NCBI GenBank assembly: GCA_000004695.1
Contig: CM000150.2
Coordinates: forward strand, 3,232,001-3,296,000
Direction of reading: 5' to 3'
Length of the DNA: 64,000 nt
Source of the DNA: Dictyostelium discoideum
Taxonomy: Eukaryota
Below the pieces are notes generated by a model that was given only the letters and a program-made list of their open reading frames with translations, had not been told where the DNA came from and searched no databases. The position numbers and the translations under genes were made by a program. Shown here piece after piece: positions 12,376-25,757 of the stretch (positions within the stretch are counted from its first letter, which is position 1; each line of letters begins with the position of its first letter).

Positions 12376-14357
12376 TTAGGCTGGAATTTTGGAAACTTTT
12401 GATTCTCTTTCCCAAACACGATGATGAGCAAGTGAATAAAAGAATTGTTCAGTGATATCTTTATAACCATTACCAAGTAATAAACCATGATCTTGAGGTA
12501 AACGAAGTAATTCTTTAATCACCGATACAGAACCACCAAATGCAATGGTTTTGAGATGTTTAAAGGCTTCAAGAATGTAATGAAGGAAATTACCATCATC
12601 AGAGAGGATTTTAGTGGCTTCTTCTGTTGATTTTGGAACATAGACTGCATCAAAGAAAATGGAAGGGTTACCAATGATTGTACCTTTTGGAGATAACATT
12701 TCACCACCACTACATTCTACTTGTGCCAAAGTTGAAGAGACTAACATTACCATTGCACCTCTTTTCTCCATATCATCTTTGAAATTGATAACGTCATCAT
12801 AGTCAACACCTTTTTCAATGATAACTGAAATTCTACGACTAACGATATCACCAGATAATAAATTTGGTTGAGATAAAGCTGGTGATGGTTTTACCATAAT
12901 CTTCTTGATTGGTTTGGTTGAAGTTGGTTCAATCTTTACACCAAGATTCTTGGCAACTTTTTCAGCGAGTACTGAATCAATGTTTACCAAGATATTGTTA
13001 ACATAACGTGTACGAACTTCTGGTCTTGAACATTTTGATATCTCAAAAGTGTATGCGGCGATGATGTGATTCTTTTCATGTTGAGACATACTATTCCAAA
13101 ACATGGTGGCTTGTGAGAAATGATCTTCAAAAGTTTCACTTCTATCATAGGATTTGGTACCACTGATATTCTCTGGATAAGGTCTGAAGCCACCTTTATT
13201 TGCTGATGGTTCCTTTAGTAATGGATAGCCTTTATCAATTGAGTTTGGGAAATAACTTGCACCACCTTTATTGATTGTCATACGATGAATACCATCTCTT
13301 TGATTATTAGCAAATGGACATACTGGTCTGTTGATTGGAATTTCATTGAAATTGGGACCACCTAAACGTGATAGTTGAGTATCTAAATATGAGAAAATAC
13401 GACCTTGCAACAATGGATCATTACTGAAATCAATACCTGGCACCACATGAGAGACACAGAATGCCACTTGTTCAGTCTCTGCGAAAAAGTTATCTGGATT
13501 TCTATCGATAACCATTCTACCCAATGGAATTACTGGTGTCAATTCTTCTGGAATTAATTTGGTTGGATCTAAAATATCGAAATCAAATTTCTTTTGTAAA
13601 TCTTCATCCAATAATTGTGCACCCAATTCCCATTGTGGGAAATCACCAGACTCAATATCTTCCCAAAAACGTCTACGATGATAATCACAATCTTTACCGG
13701 CAATCTTTTGAGCTTCATCCCAAAGCAATGAGCATGTACCAGACAATGGTTTCCAATGAAGTTTTACAAATGTACTCTTTCCTTCTTGATTAATGAAACG
13801 GTATGAATGAACACCGAAACCTTGTTGATGACGAAGTGAAATTGGGATACCACGATCTGACATTACCCATAGTACGCTATGAGCACTCTCTGGTTTTAAT
13901 CCACAGAAATCATAAAAAGTATCATGAGCACTTCCCCCAGTTGGCATTTCATTCTGTGGTTCCATCTTTACTGCATGTACAAAATCTGGGAATGAACTTG
14001 CATCTTGAATAAAAAACACTGGCATATTATTACCAACTAGATCATAATTACCTTCGTCAGTATAGAATTTCACAGCAAATCCATGAACGTCACGAACTGT
14101 ATCAGCTGATCCTCTTGGTCCTTGAACTGTTGATATACGAATGAAAACTGGTGTTTTCTTATCTTGTTTACTCAAGAAATCTGCTTTTGTTAATTTACTA
14201 TGATCCTTATAAGAAAGAAAATAACCATGAGCTCCTGTTCCTCTTGCATGAACAATTCTTTCTGGAATTCTTTCATGATCAAAATGAGTTATCTAAAATA
14301 AAAATAGAAAAAAGTATTATGAAAATAAAAATAAAAAAAATAATTAATATGTTTTAA

Positions 14358-14391
<34 letters not shown>

Positions 14392-14648
14392 TAATAATTT
14401 ATTTTTATTACCTTTTCTCTTAAAACAAAATCTTCCAAAAGAGTTGGACCTCTTGGACCTGCTTTTAATGAATTTGCATCATCTGATAAAGAAACACCAG
14501 TATTTGTTGTTGAATAAACTGGATTCTTATCATTTGTTTTGAATTTTTCAAGTTGTTCTATTTAATTTTTTAATTTTTTAATAATAATTTATATAAATAT
14601 AATAGTAATCGTAGAAAATTATTAATATTTACCTAATTTCTTATTCAT
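12376..14648 (-). CDS. catB: Catalase, large-subunit type, with a C-terminal class-I glutamine amidotransferase-like domain (catalase B). Exons on the minus strand approx 14648..14633 (16 nt), 14557..14412, 14292..12376; 692 aa.
   Basis: Core catalase motifs FDHERIPERIVHARGTGAHGYF, RIFSYLDTQLSRLGGPNF and VVPGIDFSNDPLLQGR, plus an extended C-terminus. Splice sites are GTAAAT.../...TTAAATAG and GTAAT.../...ATTTTAG. The total coding length of 2079 nt (692 aa) fits Dictyostelium CatB; that size match is recalled, not computed. Confidence 0.85.
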
Positions 14649-14791
14649 TTTTTATTTGATTAGAATTAATAATATGAAGGAAAATAAATAAAAAAATTAT
14701 TTTTGTTTTTAAATTTATTTTTTTAATTTAATTTTTTTTTTTTTTATTATGAAGTTTTATTTTTTCCTTTTTCAGATAAACTTTTTTTATA

Positions 14792-14850
<59 letters not shown>

Positions 14851-14914
14851 GGGTTAATGCTATAAGAGGGGTTCATTTCAAAAATAGCCCAATGAAATTA
14901 CTATTTTTTTTTTA

Positions 14915-14962
<48 letters not shown>

Positions 14963-15123
14963 TATTACATTAGGTTTTAAATTACACAAATCAATACTAA
15001 AATTATTGATATTGTTTTTTTTTTTTTTTTTTTTTTATACATTGTGAAATAATTTATTTAATTTTTTATTTTATTGAGTGACCAATTTATTTTTTTTTTT
15101 TATTTTTTTTTTTTAGTTTTTTA

Positions 15124-15418
15124 TTATTCAATTGGGTCAAATGTACTTAAAATAGAAATATCATCCTCTGAATAATTTTCAGTGAAATTTTTAATTTTGT
15201 CATTTAATGAATTTTTGTTTGTTTTGTTTAAAAATGAACTCTTTGTTATTTTTCTTCTTGACTCCATAGCATCTGGATTTGAATTTTTACGTTCATCATA
15301 ACCTTGAAATCTTTTTTTTTTTAAATCTATAATTTTAATTAAAAAAAAAAATTCTTTTTTTAATAAAAAATTAAAAATATGGAAAAAAAAAAAAATACTT
15401 ACCAGATTGATTATCCAT
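15124..15418 (-). CDS. Possible small two-exon gene of about 64 aa: MDNQSGYDERKNSNPDAMESRRKITKSSFLNKTNKNSLNDKIKNFTENYSEDDISILSTFDPIE*. It has a 16-nt first exon (15418..15403) and a second exon 15302..15124.
   Basis: ATG, then GTAAGT donor, a 99-nt AT-rich intron and a TTCAAG acceptor. The frame stays open for 60 codons in an otherwise homopolymer-rich intergenic region. No family recognised, so this may be spurious. Confidence 0.3.
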
Positions 15419-15870
15419 ATTTTATTTGAATATTTATAATTATAAAATTATAAAGGAAAAGAAAAGAAAAGAAAAAAAAAAATAAAAATAAAAAAAGAAA
15501 ATTACTAATACATTCCATGAAATAATTTTAAAATAGTTTTTTTTTTTTTTTTTTTAATTTTATTTTTTTATAATTTTTTTTTTTTTTTTATACTTATTTG
15601 GAAAAATCTAAAAATATTTTCCATTTTTTTTTTTATTTTAATTTTTTTAAAATTAATGTTTATTTTTACATTTTATTTTTCTTTTTTTTTTTTATTTACC
15701 TTTTTTTTTTTACCTTTATTTTTTTTTTTACCTTTATTTTTTTTTTTTAAAAAAAATAAAAAACTAAAAATATCAAAAAAAAAAAAAAAAAAAAAAAGTT
15801 TCGTTTTTATTTTATTTTTATTTTAATTTAGATTGATTATTTAGATTTGTAAATTTATACAAAAAAAAAA

Positions 15871-16759
15871 ATGACAATAAAAAATGAAGAACAACAACAA
15901 CAAACAAATAAATTAAAATATCCAAAGAATTTATTATCATCAGGATTAGATGGTGAAGGTAATACATATATAAATATTGAAGATCTTTGGAAAAAGGAAT
16001 TAGAAGGTAAAGATAATAAAATGGAAGATAAATGGTATAAATCAGCAGATGAATATTGGAAAGGAGTAGAAGCAACCGTTGATGGTATGTTAGGTGGATT
16101 AGCACAAGTATCACCAATTGATGTTGTTGCCTCAAAAGTTTTCATTCAAGATTTTATTAAAGGTACTGATAGTCGTCCACCAATTAATTTGAATTTAGCA
16201 TTAGATTGTGGTGCTGGTATTGGTAGAGTTGCAAAAGAATTCCTTTTACCAATTGGTTTTAAAAATGTTGATTTAGTTGAACAAAATAAATTATTCTTAG
16301 ATAAAGCAAAATCTGATAATTTCAAAGAGTATCTAACTAATTTAAGAAAAAAAAAAAAAAAAAAAAAACAAATACTAATATATATATATATATATATTTA
16401 TTAGTGATAATAGAGTTGAAAATTATTATGCGGTTGGATTACAAGATTTTACATTTGAAAAAAAGTATGATTGTATTTGGATTCAATGGGTAATTGGACA
16501 TTTACATGATTTAGATTTTATAGAATTTTTAAAGAAATGTATGGATTCATTGACACCAAATGGTATCATTTGTATTAAAGATAATTGTGCTAAAAAAAGA
16601 TTTATAATGGATAAAGAAGATAACTCTGTATCAAGAACTGAAGATCACTTAAAATATCTTTTCGATCAAGCTGGTTGTAAATTATTAAAATCAATGGTAC
16701 AACCAAATTTTCCAAAAGAATTATTCCCAGTTTTAATGTTTGCTTTAGAAAGAAAATAA
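15871..16759 (+). CDS. Alpha N-terminal (Xaa-Pro-Lys) protein methyltransferase, an NTMT1/METTL11 homologue. Exons approx 15871..16328 and 16405..16759.
   Basis: ADEYWKGVEATVDGMLGG ... LDCGAGIGRV ... YDCIWIQWVIGHL matches the NTM1 family SAM-binding fold. One intron, GTATCT...TTATTAG, in phase 2. Confidence 0.75.
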
Positions 16760-16833
16760 TAAATAAATAAATAAATAATAAATAAATAAATAAATTTTAA
16801 ATTTATTTATTATTTTTTAATAATTTCAATTTT

Positions 16834-18465
16834 TTAATTTCTTTTATATACATTAATTTTAAATGAATTTGGTCTAATGTTTATACCAAAGTTTTCAGTA
16901 GTATCAATTGGTTCATTAGTTATTGGAGTTATTTTATAATTTAAAATGAAATTACTAACAAATAAGAATAATTCATGGTTTGCAATTTGTTGACCAACAC
17001 AATTTCTATTACCAATTGAAAATGGTATAAAAGATTCTATATTATTATCAAGGAAACGATTTGGGTTGAATTGATTTGGATTTTTATAGATTGATTCATC
17101 ATGATTTAATGCTCTATAGTTTATAACAACATGACTCCCTTTTGGTATGAAATGACCTTTAATAATTAAATCCTTTCCAACTACTCTTGGTATACCATAT
17201 GGAGTTATTGGTGTAATTCTCATTGATTCTTTGATTGTTGCATTTAAATATGGTGTTGATGAACGATCTGATAAATATATCCTATCTTCAACTCTACCAC
17301 AACTATCTACAATACTTTTTAATTCTTTAAAAATTAATTCTTGAACATCTTGATTATTTGCAATTCTTAATATAATCCATTCAATTCCTTTTGCAGCAGT
17401 ATCTGTACCTGCAACTAATAAATCTAATGAATTTGAAACAATTGATTTAACACTTTCTTTATCTTTGATTCCAACTTCTTTAATAAATGTATGTAATAAA
17501 TCATAATTTCTAAAAAGTTTTAAAAAAAAAAAATTATTAGAATAATAATAATAAAAAAATAAATTTTTTAAATATATATTTACTCTTCTTTTTCATTATC
17601 AATTGTTTTTAAATGTTCATAAAATTTTTTATATACATAATCTCTTGCTAATGGAACATTTGAATCTGTTAATTTTAAAAATAAAGAATAAATTGGTTTT
17701 AAGAAACTAATATAATCACCAATATGACCAACATCAGCCAAGACAAAAATATTTTCTAAACATGTACAAAACTGTCCCATTTTCTAAATTTTCATTATAT
17801 GATAATGGTTCATTGAAAATATAAGTCATCATAGTTGATAATGTAAATCTTGTGGCAAATAAACGAAAGTTTAATGGTTCACCACTTTCTGAAAATGGTT
17901 TAACTGATTGAATTAAATCATTGATTTGTTTATTTAATAATTCATAAACACTTTTAACAATACCTTTTTTCATAGCTTTTTGAATCATTTCTCTATTATT
18001 TACCCATTTTTCATTTGATAATAGTATACCATTTTGATTATCACTACAATGTGAAAATGATGGTGTAATTGGTCTTTCCAAGAATGAGTTATGATTCTTT
18101 ATAAATAATTCTTCAATTATTTTATAATCACTTACCATTATTGTTTTATTATCACCTAAATACACTCTAAAAATGTCACCATATTGTTTAACTAATTCGT
18201 GACATTTTATATGTGGTTTACTTGTAATTTGATGTAAATTTCCAATAATTGGTAAAGGAAAAGGTCCATTAACTTCAAATTTATTTTTTTTAATATATTT
18301 TTTATACTAAAATTTTTTTTTTTATTTTTTTTTTTTTTCCAGTTTAAAAAAATATTAATATTAATATGTTTTTTTAATTTTATTTTTTAAAATTTAAATT
18401 ATAATTACATTTGATTTAAATAAATAAAAAATTATTAAAAAAATAACAATATTAATTATATTCAT
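16834..18465 (-). CDS. Cytochrome P450. Exons on the minus strand approx 18465..18409, 18306..17584, 17509..16834. There is an apparent 1-nt frameshift near 17735-17780 in the middle exon.
   Basis: N-terminal membrane anchor MNIINIVIFLIIFYLFKSN; Pro-rich hinge NGPFPLPIIGNLHQI; I-helix AGTDTAAKGIEWII; EXXR region; haem-binding loop FSIGNRNCVGQQIA. ORFs 17734..18165 and 17580..17780 overlap in different frames. The middle exon is 723 nt where the splice phase requires 3n+2. Confidence 0.75.
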
Positions 18466-18823
18466 TTAAAAAATTATTATTTTATTTTAATTAAGTAGAA
18501 TTTTAATTTTTTGGAAAAAAAAAAAAAAAAATAATTTCGATAAAAACATCATCATTTTTAAAAATTTAAAAAATTTTAATCATTTCAAATAATAACCTAT
18601 TTAAATTTTATTTATTTTGATTTAATTTTTTTTTTTTTTTTTTAGTGTGTAGACTGACCACATTCACCACTGTTGAAAATGAGAAATAAACTGAAAAAAC
18701 AATTCAGTCTTTTTAAATTTTATTTTTATTCACATCATATTATTTTATATTATTATTAATATGCAAATTCACAAAAAAAGATATTTTTATTATTCTTATT
18801 ATTTATTATTCGTTATTTATTTA

Positions 18824-20752
18824 TTATTTATTATATTGCAAAATAAAATTTGTAAAAAAAAAGATTTTTTGGTTGAAATCAAATAAATTATTAATTAGTT
18901 TAATATTTTCAGAGTTAATTTTCCAAATTATAAAATTTTCTATTAATTGCGAAAGTTTACAAACCGAATCAACTAATAAGAATCGGTCGGAAAGAATTAA
19001 AGTGGATTTTAGTTGGTTCAAACCTAAATTTTTTAAAAATTCTAATTGAATGTCATTGGTTTGCATATAGATTAATTCTAATATAATTCGAAGCGATTCA
19101 GAGGTTAAATCAATGTCACATTCAAAGTTAATAACTCCATTAGTAGATTCTTCAAAAGATTCACATGTTAAAATCGTTTTAAAATATTCACTAGATTTAA
19201 TTAATATTTCTTTATGTGCTTTAAAAATTCTACCTTGAATAATTAATTGACAATTACTCGTATTTTCATCATTTAATAATTTAATTTCTTCTTCTTTATT
19301 ATTATTATCTTTATTTTTATTTCTAATTTTAATTTTTCTAATTAATTTTTTATTTTGTATTAAATTTGATTTTAATGATAAAATTGTTGATTTACTTTGA
19401 TTATATTGATGTTGAAATTTAGTGAATCTTTGCTGTTGTTGTTGTTGTTCTTCTTCTTCTTCAATTGATTTTAATAAAATTTCATTTCTTTGACCAGATA
19501 TTAATAGTAATTTACTTAATTCTTTAATGAATTTTAATTTTTCAATATTATTTTCAGTGAATGATATTGGTAATAATTCAATTTGAAATGTTAATAATTT
19601 AATACCATCAATTCTTAACTCTTTAAATAATCTAATTAATGAATAAACTTGAATATCGAATAACCATTGTAAAACTCTTTCATTATCCCATTTATGAATT
19701 TTTGATAATTTAATTTTTCTAATTAATTCAATTGATTCATCTTCTTCATTAAAATAATAAAAATTATTTAATTGATTAAATTTATTATTATTATTTTGTC
19801 TACAATCTTCAGAGTGATTATTATTATTATTATTATTATTATTATAAATATTATCTTGTTCTTCTTCTTCTTCTTCTTCTCCTTCCTCTTCTTCATCACC
19901 AATTAATTGATTTGTAATTGTAGATTTTTGTGATAAATTAAAATGAATAGTGAATGGATAATCATAAATTGGATCTGGATGTTGATTTGGATTTGTATTT
20001 GAAGTACCAAACTTTTTGAAATAATTTGATGATTTACATCTAAATAGTTGAGTTCTATCATTTTTATTATTTTCCATTACACATGCTAAGAAAAATCTAG
20101 TTACATTATTGTTATTATTATTTTTATTATTTAATTTTAAATAATCAGTTAAATCTAATTTTTTATCGAAATGAATTGGTGTAGTTGGTAAATTTAATGG
20201 TAATAATGTAAAATTAAGTTGATCGGTAATTATTGAATAAACTTCATGTGAATCCATTCTTTTAAATGATTCTTTTAATATTGCTTCATTTGATTTTGTA
20301 CTGATATACCAATTAATGATAGAATTTGGATCGAATGTCATGAATAACATATTTATAAATAGATTGGTTATTTCTAATCTTGGGTCGAATTCCCATGACC
20401 AAATTGCAATTCCTCTACTATGATTATCTCTACCAATATAGCACATCTCCCAACCAGTTTCATATTTATATTTTAAATTTGAACTATATAAATATTGATT
20501 TTTTATTATTATTATTGCTTTTTCATCATGTTCTTCTTTTTCTTTTTCTTCTTTTTCTTTCTTTTTATTTTTAATCGATTTATATTGATTTGATTTTGTG
20601 TCATAACTAAATTCATGATATGAAATTGGTCTTTTAAATTCTATTTCTTTTGCTGTTAAATTATCTATATCAATTTCTAACATATATAATGGTACAATAT
20701 CTTTATTATTTATTTTTACTTTATATTCTAAATCATTTTTTATAACTTCCAT
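18824..20752 (-). CDS. BTB/POZ-domain protein, paralogue 1. Single exon, about 642 aa from the ATG at 20752. It has a distinctive N-terminal domain and a C-terminal BTB.
   Basis: C-terminal BTB: CQLIIQGRIFKAHKEILIKSSEYFKTIL...LRIILELIYMQ. N-terminal region: GWEMCYIGRDNHSRGIAIWSWEFDPRLEITNLFINMLFMTFDPNS. The central part contains poly-E and poly-N tracts. The ORF-track start at 20851 is a low-complexity leader. Confidence 0.65.
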   Translation of the reverse strand: MEVIKNDLEYKVKINNKDIVPLYMLEIDIDNLTAKEIEFKRPISYHEFSYDTKSNQYKSIKNKKKEKEEKEKEEHDEKAIIIIKNQYLYSSNLKYKYETGWEMCYIGRDNHSRGIAIWSWEFDPRLEITNLFINMLFMTFDPNSIINWYISTKSNEAILKESFKRMDSHEVYSIITDQLNFTLLPLNLPTTPIHFDKKLDLTDYLKLNNKNNNNNNVTRFFLACVMENNKNDRTQLFRCKSSNYFKKFGTSNTNPNQHPDPIYDYPFTIHFNLSQKSTITNQLIGDEEEEGEEEEEEEQDNIYNNNNNNNNNHSEDCRQNNNNKFNQLNNFYYFNEEDESIELIRKIKLSKIHKWDNERVLQWLFDIQVYSLIRLFKELRIDGIKLLTFQIELLPISFTENNIEKLKFIKELSKLLLISGQRNEILLKSIEEEEEQQQQQQRFTKFQHQYNQSKSTILSLKSNLIQNKKLIRKIKIRNKNKDNNNKEEEIKLLNDENTSNCQLIIQGRIFKAHKEILIKSSEYFKTILTCESFEESTNGVINFECDIDLTSESLRIILELIYMQTNDIQLEFLKNLGLNQLKSTLILSDRFLLVDSVCKLSQLIENFIIWKINSENIKLINNLFDFNQKIFFFTNFILQYNK

Positions 20753-21075
20753 TTTTTTTTTTTTTAAAAAAATAAAAATAAAAATAAAAAAAAAAATAAA
20801 AAAAATACAACAAAAATAAAAAAAAAAAAAAAATAAACAAAAAAAAAACAAAAAAATAATAAAAATATTAGTTATAAGGTTATTTTAAATCCAAAAAAAA
20901 AAAAAAATAAAAAAAAAAAAATAAAAATAAAAACAAAAATAAAAATTAAAATAATAACTTTAAGATATTTTTTAGATATTTATTTTATTTATTTATTTGT
21001 TTGTTTGTTTTTAATTTTTTAAATTATTTTGATTTTTTTGATTTTTGGTTTTAATTAATTAAAAAAAAATATTAT

Positions 21076-22144
21076 CTAATCAACATTTTCAAATATAAAT
21101 CTTTCAAACAATTTCAATAATTTACAGAATGATAAATGTTGACATATATAGATTGTGTAGGTGATTCGTTCTGGTGAAATCGATTTGAAATTTTCATAAC
21201 TTAAACTTTCATAGCTTGTAAAATAAACCAATTTCAATACATATTCTAGTGACTCATAATTTAAATAACCTTCTTCAACCAATTCCCATTCTGTACGATT
21301 AACTGAAAATATATTTTTAAAAAAATCTGAATTCTTTGATAATACTTCTTTGTGTACCTCTAATATTTTTTTATCAATTATTAACTCGAAATCGATTTCT
21401 CACCATTGATTGATAATTTATTATTATTATTATTGACGTTGATACTGAGACTATTATCAAAATTAATTTGTTGAAAATGTTGAGGTGGTAATGATTGAAC
21501 TGGGGAAGAATCAAATAAACAAAAAATATTACTATTACTATTAGAATTACTATTACAATTGTTATTATTATTTATTACCAAAGACTGTTTATTTGTTAAT
21601 ACCCAATTGCTTGATGATGTATTACTATTTTCAATTGATTTTACACTGATATCTTTTTTAATAAAACAAAATGATTCTTTATTTGAACTATTATTTTGAT
21701 TGTTATTATCATTATCACTATTACTATTATCACTATTATTACTATTATTGATTTGAAAATTTTCACAAAGTTTGAAAGTACAATTAAAAGTATTATTGTC
21801 TTGATTTGAACCAAATTCATTAAAATTTCCACCATTCATTATACATACTATACATAATTTACCAAAACCAATTGTATATTCACTTAAATCCATCTCTAAA
21901 TTGAATATGCTACCAAGTATTTTATCTATTGGTAATTTGTAGAAATTCCTCTTTACATATTCTGTAACATTTTTGTCTTTATTACCCTTAAAAAATTCAT
22001 TTCCAATGTAAAGATCTATACCTTTTTCTGTTGAATCCAATGAAAAACTAAATTGAGTTAAGCATCTTGTTATCACTACATTTTTACCAAATTCCCATGA
22101 CCAAATACAAAGACCATTATCATTCTTGTCAAAATAACACCTAA

Positions 22145-22181
<37 letters not shown>

Positions 22182-22603
22182 TTAATAAAAATTGAAATTA
22201 ATAATTTTTAAATAAATAAATTTATACAATACTTTTTATGAAAATGAACATTATCACAATAATATAATTGATTATTTAAAATTGTTTCATTTTTATTACA
22301 AATTTTAATTAATTTATTTTTATTAAATTTTGGTTCATAGCATATTTGATGGTATGAATAATGATTTTTATTTTTATTTATATTATTTATTATTGAATTT
22401 TTATTATTATTTTTATTATTATAATTTATTAAATTTTTATTTTTATTATTATTATTTTTAAAATCTGATTCAATATTTAATTTTATTTTATCAAATTGAT
22501 TTAATATTAAACTGGGTATATTATTATTTTCCTCCCCTAATTTTATATTATTACTGTTATTAATATTATCTGTATTATCACTATTTAATGAAAAAGATGC
22601 CAT
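21076..22603 (-). CDS. BTB/POZ-domain protein, paralogue 2. Exon 1 is 22603..~22237; the intron is ~22236..22147; exon 2 runs ~22146 down to 21076. A 2-nt frame offset (or less likely a 44-nt micro-intron) sits at ~21385-21400, at the junction between the N-domain and the BTB.
   Basis: N-domain: RCYFDKNDNGLCIWSWEFGKNVVITRCLTQFSFSLDSTEKGIDLYIGNEFF, paralogous to 18824..20752. BTB: EIDFELIIDKKILEVHKEVLSKNSDFFKNIF...YVLKLVYF. Removing the 2 nt at ...AATG|GT|GAGAAATC joins the frames as ...SINENEIDFE.... Confidence 0.55.
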
Positions 22604-23199
22604 TTTTTTTTTTTTTTTTTTTAAAGGCAATGTATATTTATATTATAATTATTATTTGTAAATAAAAATAGGGGAAATAAAAAAGTTTAAATATATAAAA
22701 AAAAAAAAATAAAAAATATTTATAGGCTTCATAATAATAAATTTTAAAAAAAAATAAAATTTTTTAATTTGGATCAATAGATGAATTATGTTAAAATTTC
22801 CTAAAATAAACATCCATCATTTTCCTTTTTTTTAAAGAAAAATATTTTGTTTTTTTTTTTTTTTTTTTTTTTTTTTTTGGATATTTAATAATAAGATTTT
22901 ATCTGGGGGTCATTGATGATTGTTTATTTTAGGAGACTTTATAATAAAAAATGAAAATCTCTTAGCTGATTGGTTATATCCAATTTTTTATTAATTTTTT
23001 TTTTTTTTTTCCTAAATATTTTTTTTTTTTTATTTTTTTTTTTTTATATATAAAGTTTATTTAAAAGATTAGCATTACATTTTATTATTTAATTTGATTA
23101 TGTGTTGTATATGTATTTTTTGATATATTTTTATTTATTTTAAAATTGTTGAATTAATTTAGTTCCATCATTGCCTTGTTTAAAAAAAAAAATTTTAAA

Positions 23200-24294
23200 G
23201 GGTTGAGTATAATTTTAATGTTTGCTCTTGATGACGTGAGGGGTGAGCAGTGAATGTGTAGAATTTTTTTTTTTTTTTTTAGTTTTCATATTGAACAAAT
23301 AATAAATTTTTTTTTTTTCAAAGTTATTTGATCTGAATTTGTTGGAAATATGTAAATTTTTTTTTTTTTTTTTTTTTTTTTTATTCAGTTTTGATGATAT
23401 TTAAAATTAAATGTATGAATAATAGTTTTTTTATAATATCAACTAATCAATGTTTATTCATTAAAGGATATAAATAATAGTTTGTTTTGTTTTTTAAGTA
23501 CCAGCTAATATTTTAAAAATTAAATAAAGAAATTAAGAATGAGGGTTTTTCGCTTTACAATTGATTGCGGATCAAACCCACATGTTATGAATTATTAATT
23601 CCATTGTGTTTCTATATGCCAAGGTTCTGTTAAAATGAAATTTTTTTTTTTTTTTTTTTTTGATATTAATTATTAATAATTATATTATTTAGAGTTAAAT
23701 AAATTGATCCACAATTACTCTATTTGGTAGGCTGTGTTTGGTATACTGTATTCGTTGATATTTTGATATTTAATATTTTTAATTTGTTTGATGTATTCTC
23801 ATTTACAAATTGAAAGTGTTCCTCTTGACTACATATATAAAGTAAAATTTTTTAATTTATTTATGTAGTTCAAGGTTGCAGATTTATACCATTTTTTGAG
23901 AACAATATCGTAGTTTAATATAGCGTCTTGAATTTTGTAATCACTGTAGAGTTGATGATAAAATCATATCTGATGTAATATCAAAGGAACTCACAATTAA
24001 TATTATATTAATGCTGTAAAGCATGAATCAAAACTAACTTTTTTATTTCATTTTTTCAGTTTTTATAATTTTTAAGTTTTCCTTATTTCCGACCATAAAG
24101 CTTTTAACAAACACTAAAATATATAAAATTAAATAAATTAATTATTATTTTAATTATTATTGTTCAATTGTTAATTATTATTCTTATTGACATTCCTATT
24201 ATTAATTTTTTTTTTTTTTAGATATTAATTAATTAGTTACTTGATCTTTATTTAGATCTTTAGTTATAATAAGTGTTTATTTTGGTTTTATGTG

Positions 24295-24328
<34 letters not shown>

Positions 24329-24700
24329 TTGTTTTACATAAATTGATCTACAAAAATTTTGTTACTGTATCCCAAGTAATCATTAGCATTCGGATTATAT
24401 TTTTAATGTATTCGTTTTAGTTGTGGATTAACTGAGGATCTTTAATCAAAGATATTTTAAAGTTTTTGATTTTATAGATGTAATCTAGCGTGGCTGATTT
24501 GTACCATTTGGTAGTCTAATTCTTCATTTTGAACTTTGATGTCACTGTATAGTTGATTGCAAATCCAGATCCAGACTTGATGTAGTATTAGTGCTATAAT
24601 GTTTTTATATGAAAATGATTTGGAGAGATCATAGTTTGTTTGGTGTTATAAAGCAATTAAGTGAGGTTTATGAATATTATTAATTTTATGATTATTAAAA
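23200..24700. repeat. Moderately GC-rich, non-coding modular repeat block downstream of the tRNA. It contains two diverged direct repeat units (about 23840..24060 and 24440..24680) and poly-T runs at 23266, 23350 and 23641. It may be a TRE3-type or other tRNA-associated element remnant.
   Basis: Repeat units share cagatttataccatttt.../ctgatttgtaccattt... and cttgaattttgtaatcactgtagagttgatg/cattttgaactttgatgtcactgtatagttgattg. There are no ORFs. The block ends about 100 bp from the tRNA 3' end, the distance at which Dictyostelium TRE3 elements are known to insert. Element identity is not established. Confidence 0.35.
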
Positions 24701-24789
24701 ACTTATTAATATTAAACAATGTAATTCATTTCAAAATCTCGAATGTGGATTTTGGGTAATCGATCCAACGATCTATCATTCGCCTTGCA

Positions 24790-24804
24790 AAAAAAAAAAA
24801 AAAT
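24790..24804 (-). terminator. Pol III terminator: an oligo-T run on the tRNA strand immediately 3' of the tRNA.
   Basis: The plus strand shows an A14-15 run directly abutting the tRNA 3' end, which is T14-15 on the minus strand. Confidence 0.6.
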
Positions 24805-24877
24805 TGCTCGATGCAGGGATCGAACCTGCGACCGTGGCGTTATTAGCACCACGCTCTGCCGACTGAGCTAATCGAGC
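24805..24877 (-). tRNA. tRNA-Ile, anticodon AAU.
   Basis: The reverse complement reads GCTCGAT-TA-GCTCAGTCGGCAGAGC-G-TGGTG-CTAATAA-CGCCA-CGGTC-GCAGG-TTCGATC-CCTGC-ATCGAGC-A. All stems pair in a canonical cloverleaf, A and B boxes are present, and the anticodon loop is CU-AAU-AA. Confidence 0.9.
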
Positions 24878-24927
24878 CATTTTGATATTTTAGAAATAAA
24901 GTTACTCTATAAAATTAATAAATAAAA

Positions 24928-25757
24928 AGAAAGGAGCAGAAGAGACTATGAAATTGGAGGCCTGCAACTCTGGAATATGGCAACCAGATCCAATGCCCAG
25001 AAAGCATGGATATACGAACAATACCTCAGAGAAAAAGACGACCAGAACTGCCCTCCACATATGAAAGCCTGGAAGTTGTTGCACCACCCAAGAGAGCGAA
25101 TTACTCTCAAACTAAACCAAGTCAAACCCAAATACAAAAACAAACAAAAATTAAAAGTAATCTATAGAAACATGATGGATATCAAATACAAGGGATGGAA
25201 CAAACACCAGCCAACAACAGGTCAAAAACTGATTCAAAAGAACATTAATCACCCAACTCTACCATTTAGAGAAGCCAGATCAATAACAACTATCAAAGGA
25301 AGAGACTTAGCATGGAGGTATCTACTCAAGGCACTTCCAAAACACCATGTGGAGAATTGCCACTCATGTAAAGAAGAAGAGTCGTCTATGCACATCTTCT
25401 TCGAATGCAAATCAATAAAACAGGATATCGACTCAATCTATCAAAAGGTCTGTAAAGACTCTAACAACACTTACCACGGTCCATGGAGCGAAAAAGTTCT
25501 CGGAAAACTACTCACACCATTCTCATCAAATCTGATAGGAGCCATTATGGAATCGATATGGTACAGAAGAAACCAAATAAAATTCAACGATAACACTACA
25601 ATAATAACAGAGAACCAAATAATTCATAAAATCAAAGGCTTTCCAGCATTTGATGTGAATCCTTGATAGTGAGTTTTCTTTTTCCGACTTCCAGACTTCC
25701 ATATGTGGAGGGCAGTTCTGGTCGTCTTTTTCTCTGAGGTATATAACACCAACTACT

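Follow-up and report, generated by a model that had tools for sequence, protein, structure and literature searches.

A dictyostelid pair of PAW-BTB genes: one Cul3-adaptor-like member and a neighbour probably frameshifted by a single-nucleotide deletion

Two adjacent minus-strand genes of Dictyostelium discoideum each join an N-terminal domain of about 200 residues to a BTB domain, and they raise the question of what the N-terminal domain is and whether the frame break inside the second gene is a mutation or a very short intron. The genes, here gene 1 and gene 2, lie at positions 18,824 to 22,603 of a 64,000-nucleotide (nt) stretch of dictyostelid DNA of about 20% GC (the window; assembly GCA_000004695.1, contig CM000150.2, positions 3,232,001 to 3,296,000). 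Our overall reading, to which we give a probability of about 0.8, is that they form a dictyostelid PAW-BTB pair in which gene 1 is Cul3-adaptor-like and gene 2 has been frameshifted by a 1-nt deletion.

Gene 1 (DDB_G0270596, UniProt Q55DH4) occupies 18824..20752 on the minus strand, as do all features described below on that strand. It is a single-exon coding sequence, with an uninterrupted open reading frame (ORF) from the ATG at 20752 to the stop at 18824..18826 that translates to 642 amino acids (aa). An exact-sequence look-up found the same protein deposited as EAL72648.1 / XP_646157.1, and Q55DH4 is named “BTB domain-containing protein.” The domain order is PAW, SAM, a disordered linker, BTB, and 3-box-like helices. 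Gene 2 (DDB_G0270598, UniProt Q55DH3, “uncharacterized”) is the divergent paralogue at 21076..22603, with its ATG at 22603 and its stop at 21076..21078. It consists of a PAW-like domain, a low-complexity linker, and BTB, and has no SAM and no 3-box. Its first intron (22141..22232) is genuine: it is 92 nt long with GT..AG ends (GTATTG...AATTAG) and 5.4% GC, and it is also present in the related assemblies L003 and L004. L003 is GCA_054859385.1, which forms with GCA_054859355.1 a pair of related assemblies deposited as D. discoideum. Full-text literature searches found no paper naming DDB_G0270596 or DDB_G0270598.

Comparison of the two proteins by BLASTP gave 27% identity over 161 aa (E 1e-7) for the N-terminal domain and 29% identity (E 3e-6) for BTB. 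These values indicate paralogy beyond chance, and the earlier note on this DNA was correct in describing two neighbouring paralogues with a common N-domain and BTB. The peptides quoted in that note are present as well; the leading R of the second is a read-through of the intron acceptor, and the spliced residue is K. A HMMER profile built from both N-domains and searched against 1.84 billion representative proteins matched the two genes and homologues in D. firmibasis, D. dimigraforme, D. purpureum (two copies), and Tieghemostelium lacteum (E 1e-11 to 1e-79 for the five dictyostelid homologues, and 2e-4 for T. lacteum). Apart from these, the search gave only one weak and probably unrelated repeat protein. 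The homologues of gene 1 type all have one common architecture, and gene 1 is conserved from Tieghemostelium to Dictyostelium. At the search sensitivity reached, gene 1 and gene 2 thus appear to belong to a dictyostelid-specific family that joins PAW to BTB. The “C...IWSWEF” core proposed earlier as conserved was upheld in part: its second W and its F are invariant in seven aligned family members, and the rest of the core is variable.

Two of the sequences retrieved deserve comment. The T. lacteum member (KYR00182.1, P0006) carries the source name “Rab GTPase domain-containing protein,” which is probably a misannotation; in the alignment the protein has the family's PAW and BTB regions. The repeat protein (P0007, 912 aa) has four modules of about 110 aa and PT-rich linkers, and the N-domain profile matched it in four stretches (E 2.6e-4); it may be a distant beta-sandwich resembling carbohydrate-binding modules or a compositional artefact.

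PAW, the mannose-binding module at the C-terminus of animal peptide:N-glycanase (PNGase), has been described from PNGases of animals and from some proteins of nematodes. The N-terminal domain common to the two genes belongs to PAW (Pfam PF04721) in a divergent form, and the earlier statement that it could not be assigned to a known domain no longer holds, as Pfam, a profile search of Protein Data Bank (PDB) sequences, and Foldseek all found PAW. When the N-domains were scanned alone, five of the seven in the family matched PF04721, one of them above the cut-off. This was the T. lacteum domain, with 39.6 bits (E 6.5e-10) against a gathering score of 31.4. The D. firmibasis domain scored 30.3 bits, below the cut-off; the gene 1 domain was also sub-threshold with 26.8 bits (E 5.6e-6, aa 45-168), and two further domains gave E 6e-4 and 5e-3. 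No other Pfam family was matched consistently by the seven domains. The Pfam scan of full-length gene 1 listed neither PAW nor SAM, and both surfaced only in separate scans of the domains. A profile of the seven N-domains retrieved from PDB sequences solely mouse PNGase's C-terminal domain (2g9f, 2g9g, 2i74; E 0.02-0.04), which has in common with the family the pattern E-x-x-W-x-M-x-Y-L ... SWxF (family consensus “kfkhEaewemcYltrd…iliwsWeFd…leIt”). Foldseek with the N-domain model gave 2g9g at E 5.5e-6 and 2g9f at E 1.6e-5, about 20-fold better than the next match, and the structure comparison showed that the fold is the beta-sandwich of the mouse domain. The PAW domain of gene 1 covers aa ~8-277 (19922..20731), where a K/E-rich and a poly-N loop interrupt the beta-sandwich. 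In gene 2 the PAW-like domain covers aa 81-292 (21636..22363, across intron 1), as placed by alignment with the gene 1 family, and it is counted as PAW because it is homologous to gene 1 over its whole length. The D. purpureum protein P0004 likewise has an N-domain with no direct PAW match in Pfam.

A match to a well-known domain such as MATH, BACK, or TLDc had been put forward in the earlier note as evidence that would overturn its view of the N-domain. PAW is such a match in spirit, although it is an obscure domain and most family members score below the cut-off. MATH, BACK, and TLDc are unsupported: Pfam MATH gave no match, and Pfam placed no MATH/TRAF domain N-terminal to BTB. It could be argued that the N-domain is a lineage-specific beta-sandwich that merely converged on the PAW fold and binds protein degrons, like MATH in SPOP, and not glycans. 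The sub-threshold Pfam scores of most family members fit this explanation, but we consider it unlikely, because one member passes the curated threshold and four others match the same model, which is sequence evidence independent of fold. The retrieval of only PNGase PAW chains from PDB sequences, with the common motif, also argues against convergence. As to the type of ligand, protein or glycan, either may be right, and both readings stand.

Gene 1 also has a SAM domain that the earlier note overlooked. It covers aa ~357-419 (19496..19684). Pfam SAM_2 gave 27.0 and 23.7 bits in two orthologues (cut-off 20.5), 19.1 in another, and 17.5 (E 0.005) in gene 1 itself. The AlphaFold2 (AF2) model of this region is a helical bundle with a predicted local distance difference test (pLDDT) score of 60-79, and the stretch has zero non-synonymous changes compared with the related assembly. 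The gene 1 family thus has both features sought for SAM, the profile match (PF07647/PF00536) and the five-helix bundle. A disordered linker of about 70 residues separates SAM from BTB.

KLHL11 and SPOP insert a residue of the alpha3-beta4 loop into Cul3, within a hydrophobic-x-Glu motif (Phe130-Ser-Glu132 in KLHL11 and Met233 in SPOP; PMC3597819). The BTB domain of gene 1 covers aa 492-602 (18947..19279) and is supported by Pfam (37.6 bits, E 2.8e-9), by AF2 (pLDDT 85-92), and by Foldseek. It is followed by three further helices that extend to the C-terminus (aa ~600-641, 18830..18955; fragment positions 272-313, pLDDT ~88-90). For the C-terminal half of the protein, the top Foldseek match in PDB was the BTB/3-box of SPOP (3htm, E 1e-6, TM 0.75 on target), and the next matches were KLHL11, KBTBD2/4, and KLHL3, several of which were solved in Cul3 complexes. 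The predicted helices and the SPOP match together support a two-helix, 3-box-like extension in gene 1. At the position of the residue that KLHL11 and SPOP insert into Cul3, a hydrophobic-x-Glu motif, FEE in gene 1 (19148..19156, inside BTB), is kept in 6/6 sequences of gene 1 type (FEE, FKE, FCE, FNE, FKE, MLE), its position being set by sequence alignment only. Gene 1 is under purifying selection, with a ratio of non-synonymous to synonymous substitution rates (dN/dS) of 0.19 against the related assembly and 0.26 against D. firmibasis. Gene 1 is most plausibly an SPOP-type Cul3 substrate adaptor, and the suggestion that the N-domain serves as the substrate module of such an adaptor is likely for gene 1, given its BTB, its 3-box-like helices, and its conserved hydrophobic-x-Glu.

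The gene 1 model deposited for GCA_054859385.1 (L003 5001..7286; KAM9961718.1, 614 aa) has its true C-terminus replaced by a spliced-on tail (…VDSVFADSDTANEPID…). Despite this model, the gene is intact in L003 as a single ORF with the normal …TNFILQYNK end.

The 2-nt frame offset noticed earlier in gene 2 was confirmed. The N-domain frame reads …KLSINGEKSISS up to a premature TAA (21381..21383), so that the product with only intron 1 removed has 376 aa, ends in ...GEKSISS, and lacks BTB. The BTB frame (21079..21399) opens just after a TGA (21400..21402), continues to the stop (21076..21078), and reads EIDFELIIDKKILEVHKEVLSKNSDFF…; its part upstream of both annotated splice acceptors is EIDFELIIDKKILEVHKEVL. 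This upstream stretch aligns gap-free to the BTB start of gene 1 (NCQLIIQGRIFKAHKEILIKSSEYF) and of every orthologue, and tblastn with the gene 1 BTB places the beginning of homology at 21387-21399. Because the homology reaches upstream into this segment, genuine BTB-coding sequence lies inside the proposed 44-nt intron (21360..21403).

The related assemblies GCA_054859385.1 and GCA_054859355.1 share about 92% identity with the window at gene 2. They have only the first intron and carry uninterrupted ORFs of 458 and 463 aa. Their junctions are …AATGGTGAGAAATCTGATTTCAAG… (INGEKSDFKLIVDKKILEVHKEVL) and INGEKFDFKIRIDKKKLRVHKEVL, respectively, and both read ...GAGAAATCTGATTTC... in frame. The window has AAATC^GATTTC where L003 has AAATCTGATTTC, with one base missing between 21394 and 21393, and the shift falls at the first BTB strand. 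Restoring one base gives ...SINGEKSDFELIIDKKILEVHKEVL..., which is again gap-free with the BTB start of gene 1 and the orthologues. The BTB Pfam score of the repaired frame is 33.3 bits over model positions 2-77; with the 44-nt intron removed instead, it is 19.7 bits over positions 24-75, below the 20.5 cut-off. On this comparison of sequences, the frame offset is best explained by a 1-nt deletion and not by a micro-intron.

Deposited gene models have bridged the offset in two ways, and the window sequence reproduces both exactly. The AX4 reference model (XP_646158.1, 450 aa) uses an 83-nt GT..AG intron (21303..21385) that deletes ELIIDKKILEVHKEVLSKNSDFFKNIFS, and the newer KAM9941134.1 model (463 aa) uses the 44-nt GT..AG intron, which cuts sequence coding for BTB strands. 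Since both remove BTB-coding sequence, they appear to be annotation artefacts that bridge the frameshift, and it would be the frameshift that led two predictors to two different destructive bridges.

The earlier note had offered a frameshift and a 44-nt micro-intron as alternatives, and the evidence favours the former. If the 44-nt segment were a genuine, very short intron, gene 2 would encode the 463-aa KAM9941134.1 protein. In favour of this reading, the segment begins and ends with the canonical GT and AG, the frame is restored once it is removed, and it is used in one deposited annotation; we nevertheless regard the reading as very unlikely. The segment is homologous to the first two BTB strands in gene 1 and in every orthologue, it resembles exons in GC content (22.7%, compared with 23-25% in exons and 5.4% in the real intron), and the BTB score falls under the cut-off on its removal. 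The same stretch is uninterrupted coding sequence in both related assemblies, and the AX4 reference annotation picks another, equally destructive intron. Its length is also far below the median of 104 bp for D. discoideum introns (PMC4683709); for a minimum intron length in Dictyostelium, literature searches gave only mean and median values. In coding homology, base composition, length, and reading frame in relatives, the segment does not behave as a spliceosomal intron.

A sequencing or assembly error, with gene 2 intact in the organism, would also account for a single-base difference in very AT-rich DNA. The separate assembly GCA_054883475.1 and the window do differ in homopolymer length at three places, but the site of the missing base is not a homopolymer, and there the two agree exactly, without a single mismatch in 6.7 kb. 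The same frameshifted sequence also underlies the AX4 reference protein model, and an error is highly improbable. Rescue of a full-length product by programmed -1 ribosomal frameshifting or by an alternative 47-nt intron (21399..21445, GTATCA...GGTGAG) is more doubtful still and can hardly be credited. A shift of -1 is the direction needed, and the 47-nt intron would yield ...FDNSLKIDFELIIDKKILEVHKEVL with a complete BTB. However, no slippery heptamer (X XXY YYZ) was found in the frame-overlap zone, and the 47-nt segment has a coding-like GC of 23%, its AG (…CAATGGTGAG) is not preceded by an AT-rich tract, and the relatives use it as coding sequence in frame. The in-frame state of the relatives marks the shift as a new mutation and not a conserved recoding signal.

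Gene 2 was functional until recently, judging by its dN/dS among three alleles of 0.37-0.57, which is below 1 (Fisher p 7e-4); the ratio is about twice that of gene 1, and gene 2 is thus less constrained. The Pfam scan found no SAM in gene 2, and its C-terminus falls about 40 residues short of proteins of gene 1 type, which means that it has no 3-box. The hydrophobic-x-Glu position reads RTE, LTE, or RTK across the three alleles and is not conserved even where the ORF is intact. In the window allele the hydrophobic position is Arg (RTE, codon CGT at 21295..21297), and the related assemblies have LTE and RTK. A neighbour-joining tree places gene 2 on a deep, long branch with 28% identity to gene 1, and the syntenic interval of D. 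firmibasis has no gene 2 copy; both speak against a recent tandem copy of gene 1 as its origin. Gene 2 would therefore be either an old paralogue of which other lineages have lost their copies or a duplicate that evolves fast. The simplest reading is that it is a weakly constrained, degenerate member of the family that was still coding in the ancestor shared by these assemblies and whose frame was broken recently in the lineage of reference type. In the reference-type genome, the deletion would leave gene 2 making only the 376-aa BTB-less protein, or nothing useful, and gene 2 here would be a pseudogene or truncation that arose recently and in this lineage alone. Gene 2 has a familiar parallel in unitary or strain-specific pseudogenes that automated annotation bridges with spurious short introns, and it is a textbook example: the two GT..AG pairs (44 and 83 nt) that different predictors placed over a 1-nt deletion are nothing unusual.

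A working model for gene 1 follows from its domains. BTB and the 3-box would dimerise and dock cullin-3, SAM would add self-association, and the PAW beta-sandwich would choose the substrate, perhaps by recognising a mannose-type glycan, as PAW does in animal PNGase. Gene 1 would then be the Cul3 counterpart of the sugar-recognising F-box ligases. The closest parallel in overall layout is SPOP and the MATH-BTB proteins, in which an N-terminal beta-sandwich recognition domain likewise precedes BTB and a two-helix 3-box with a hydrophobic-x-Glu motif for Cul3 contact. Both also have an additional self-association module (SAM in gene 1, the BACK/C-terminal domain in SPOP) that could give higher-order oligomers. 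They differ in that the recognition domain of gene 1 is PAW and not MATH, and in that SAM and the disordered linker stand before BTB.

Animal PNGase/NGLY1 (2G9F, 2G9G, 2I74) offers the parallel for the recognition domain itself, with the same beta-sandwich fold and the same E-x-x-W-x-M-x-Y-L...SWxF motif, within a cytosolic protein tied to the ubiquitin-proteasome system. In PNGase, PAW is C-terminal to the transglutaminase-like amidase core, whereas the dictyostelid PAW is N-terminal and fused to SAM and BTB. The dictyostelid domain is also divergent, with long low-complexity loop insertions and most members under the Pfam threshold, and mannose binding is ascribed to it only by analogy. Zhou et al. 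reportedly described in 2006 the mannose-contact residues of the PNGase PAW in a mannopentaose complex. Compared with the glycoprotein ligases Fbs1/FBXO2 and Fbs2/FBXO6, gene 1 has PAW where they have FBA, and a BTB that presumably docks Cul3 where they use Skp1/Cul1; glycan binding on the gene 1 side is again drawn from likeness.

Since the one PAW domain that has been characterised binds high-mannose glycans (PMC9102325), a glycan-reading Cul3 ligase is an attractive idea. DDB_G0270596 and its orthologues might be adaptors that ubiquitylate proteins with high-mannose N-glycans exposed to the cytosol, such as retro-translocated endoplasmic reticulum proteins or those of ruptured endolysosomes. 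This proposal is tentative, reasons from the animal domain, and is in our view possible but improbable. If true, it would mean that a Cul3-based counterpart of the SCF-Fbs1/Fbs2 glycoprotein ligases of animals evolved independently in a lineage that has no PAW in its PNGase; the D. discoideum PNGase is reported to have a legume-lectin-like C-terminal domain in its place (PMC3502110).

Several points weigh against our reading of the locus as a PAW-BTB pair with a Cul3-adaptor-like gene 1 and a frameshifted gene 2. The N-domain of gene 2 has no direct PAW match in Pfam, and the AF2 models come from alignments of 6-7 sequences, with a mean pLDDT of ~64-67. Cul3 binding by gene 1 is a prediction, and glycan binding by its PAW domain is an analogy. 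Intact gene 2 alleles may not encode Cul3 adaptors either, judging from their residues at the contact position. GCA_054883475.1 may come from the same laboratory lineage as the window, in which case it is not an independent sample of the deletion. Cryptic splicing of the 44-nt GT..AG segment in AX4 is conceivable and would yield a protein with a crippled BTB.

Differences among the assemblies extend beyond gene 2. A cytochrome P450 gene (~16834..18465, minus strand) lies between gene 1 and a methyltransferase gene in the window and in GCA_054883475.1. It is absent at the same spot in GCA_054859385.1, GCA_054859355.1, and D. firmibasis, where ~215 nt stand in place of about 1.8 kb (L003 7016..7231; L004; L002 9878..10095). 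The pattern resembles that of a gene insertion specific to one lineage or of a presence/absence polymorphism. GCA_054859385.1 and GCA_054859355.1 have 82-94% identity to the window over >9 kb (region 14000..25000), with a synonymous divergence of 0.09-0.13, and the synonymous divergence (dS) between the two is ~0.04. The divergence of both assemblies from the window is seemingly too high for one species; they may represent a cryptic lineage or carry a wrong species label, or the region may be hypervariable.

Each of the domains described here was known already, and the frameshift is ordinary. The combination PAW-SAM-BTB is new, and it is limited to dictyostelids at the sensitivity reached. Full-text literature searches found no paper describing the PAW-BTB architecture, and automated pipelines have already labelled the D. 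firmibasis protein, at least, with PAW and BTB. The family extends the range of PAW to social amoebae, with SAM and BTB as new partners. Two deposited models of DDB_G0270598, Q55DH3 and KAM9941134.1, are corrected by the analysis. The laboratory reference lineage has a null or truncated gene 2 allele that is intact in related isolates, and this matters for knock-out or expression work. For gene 1, the domain combination provides a testable hypothesis, that of a glycan-reading Cul3 ligase in a tractable model organism.

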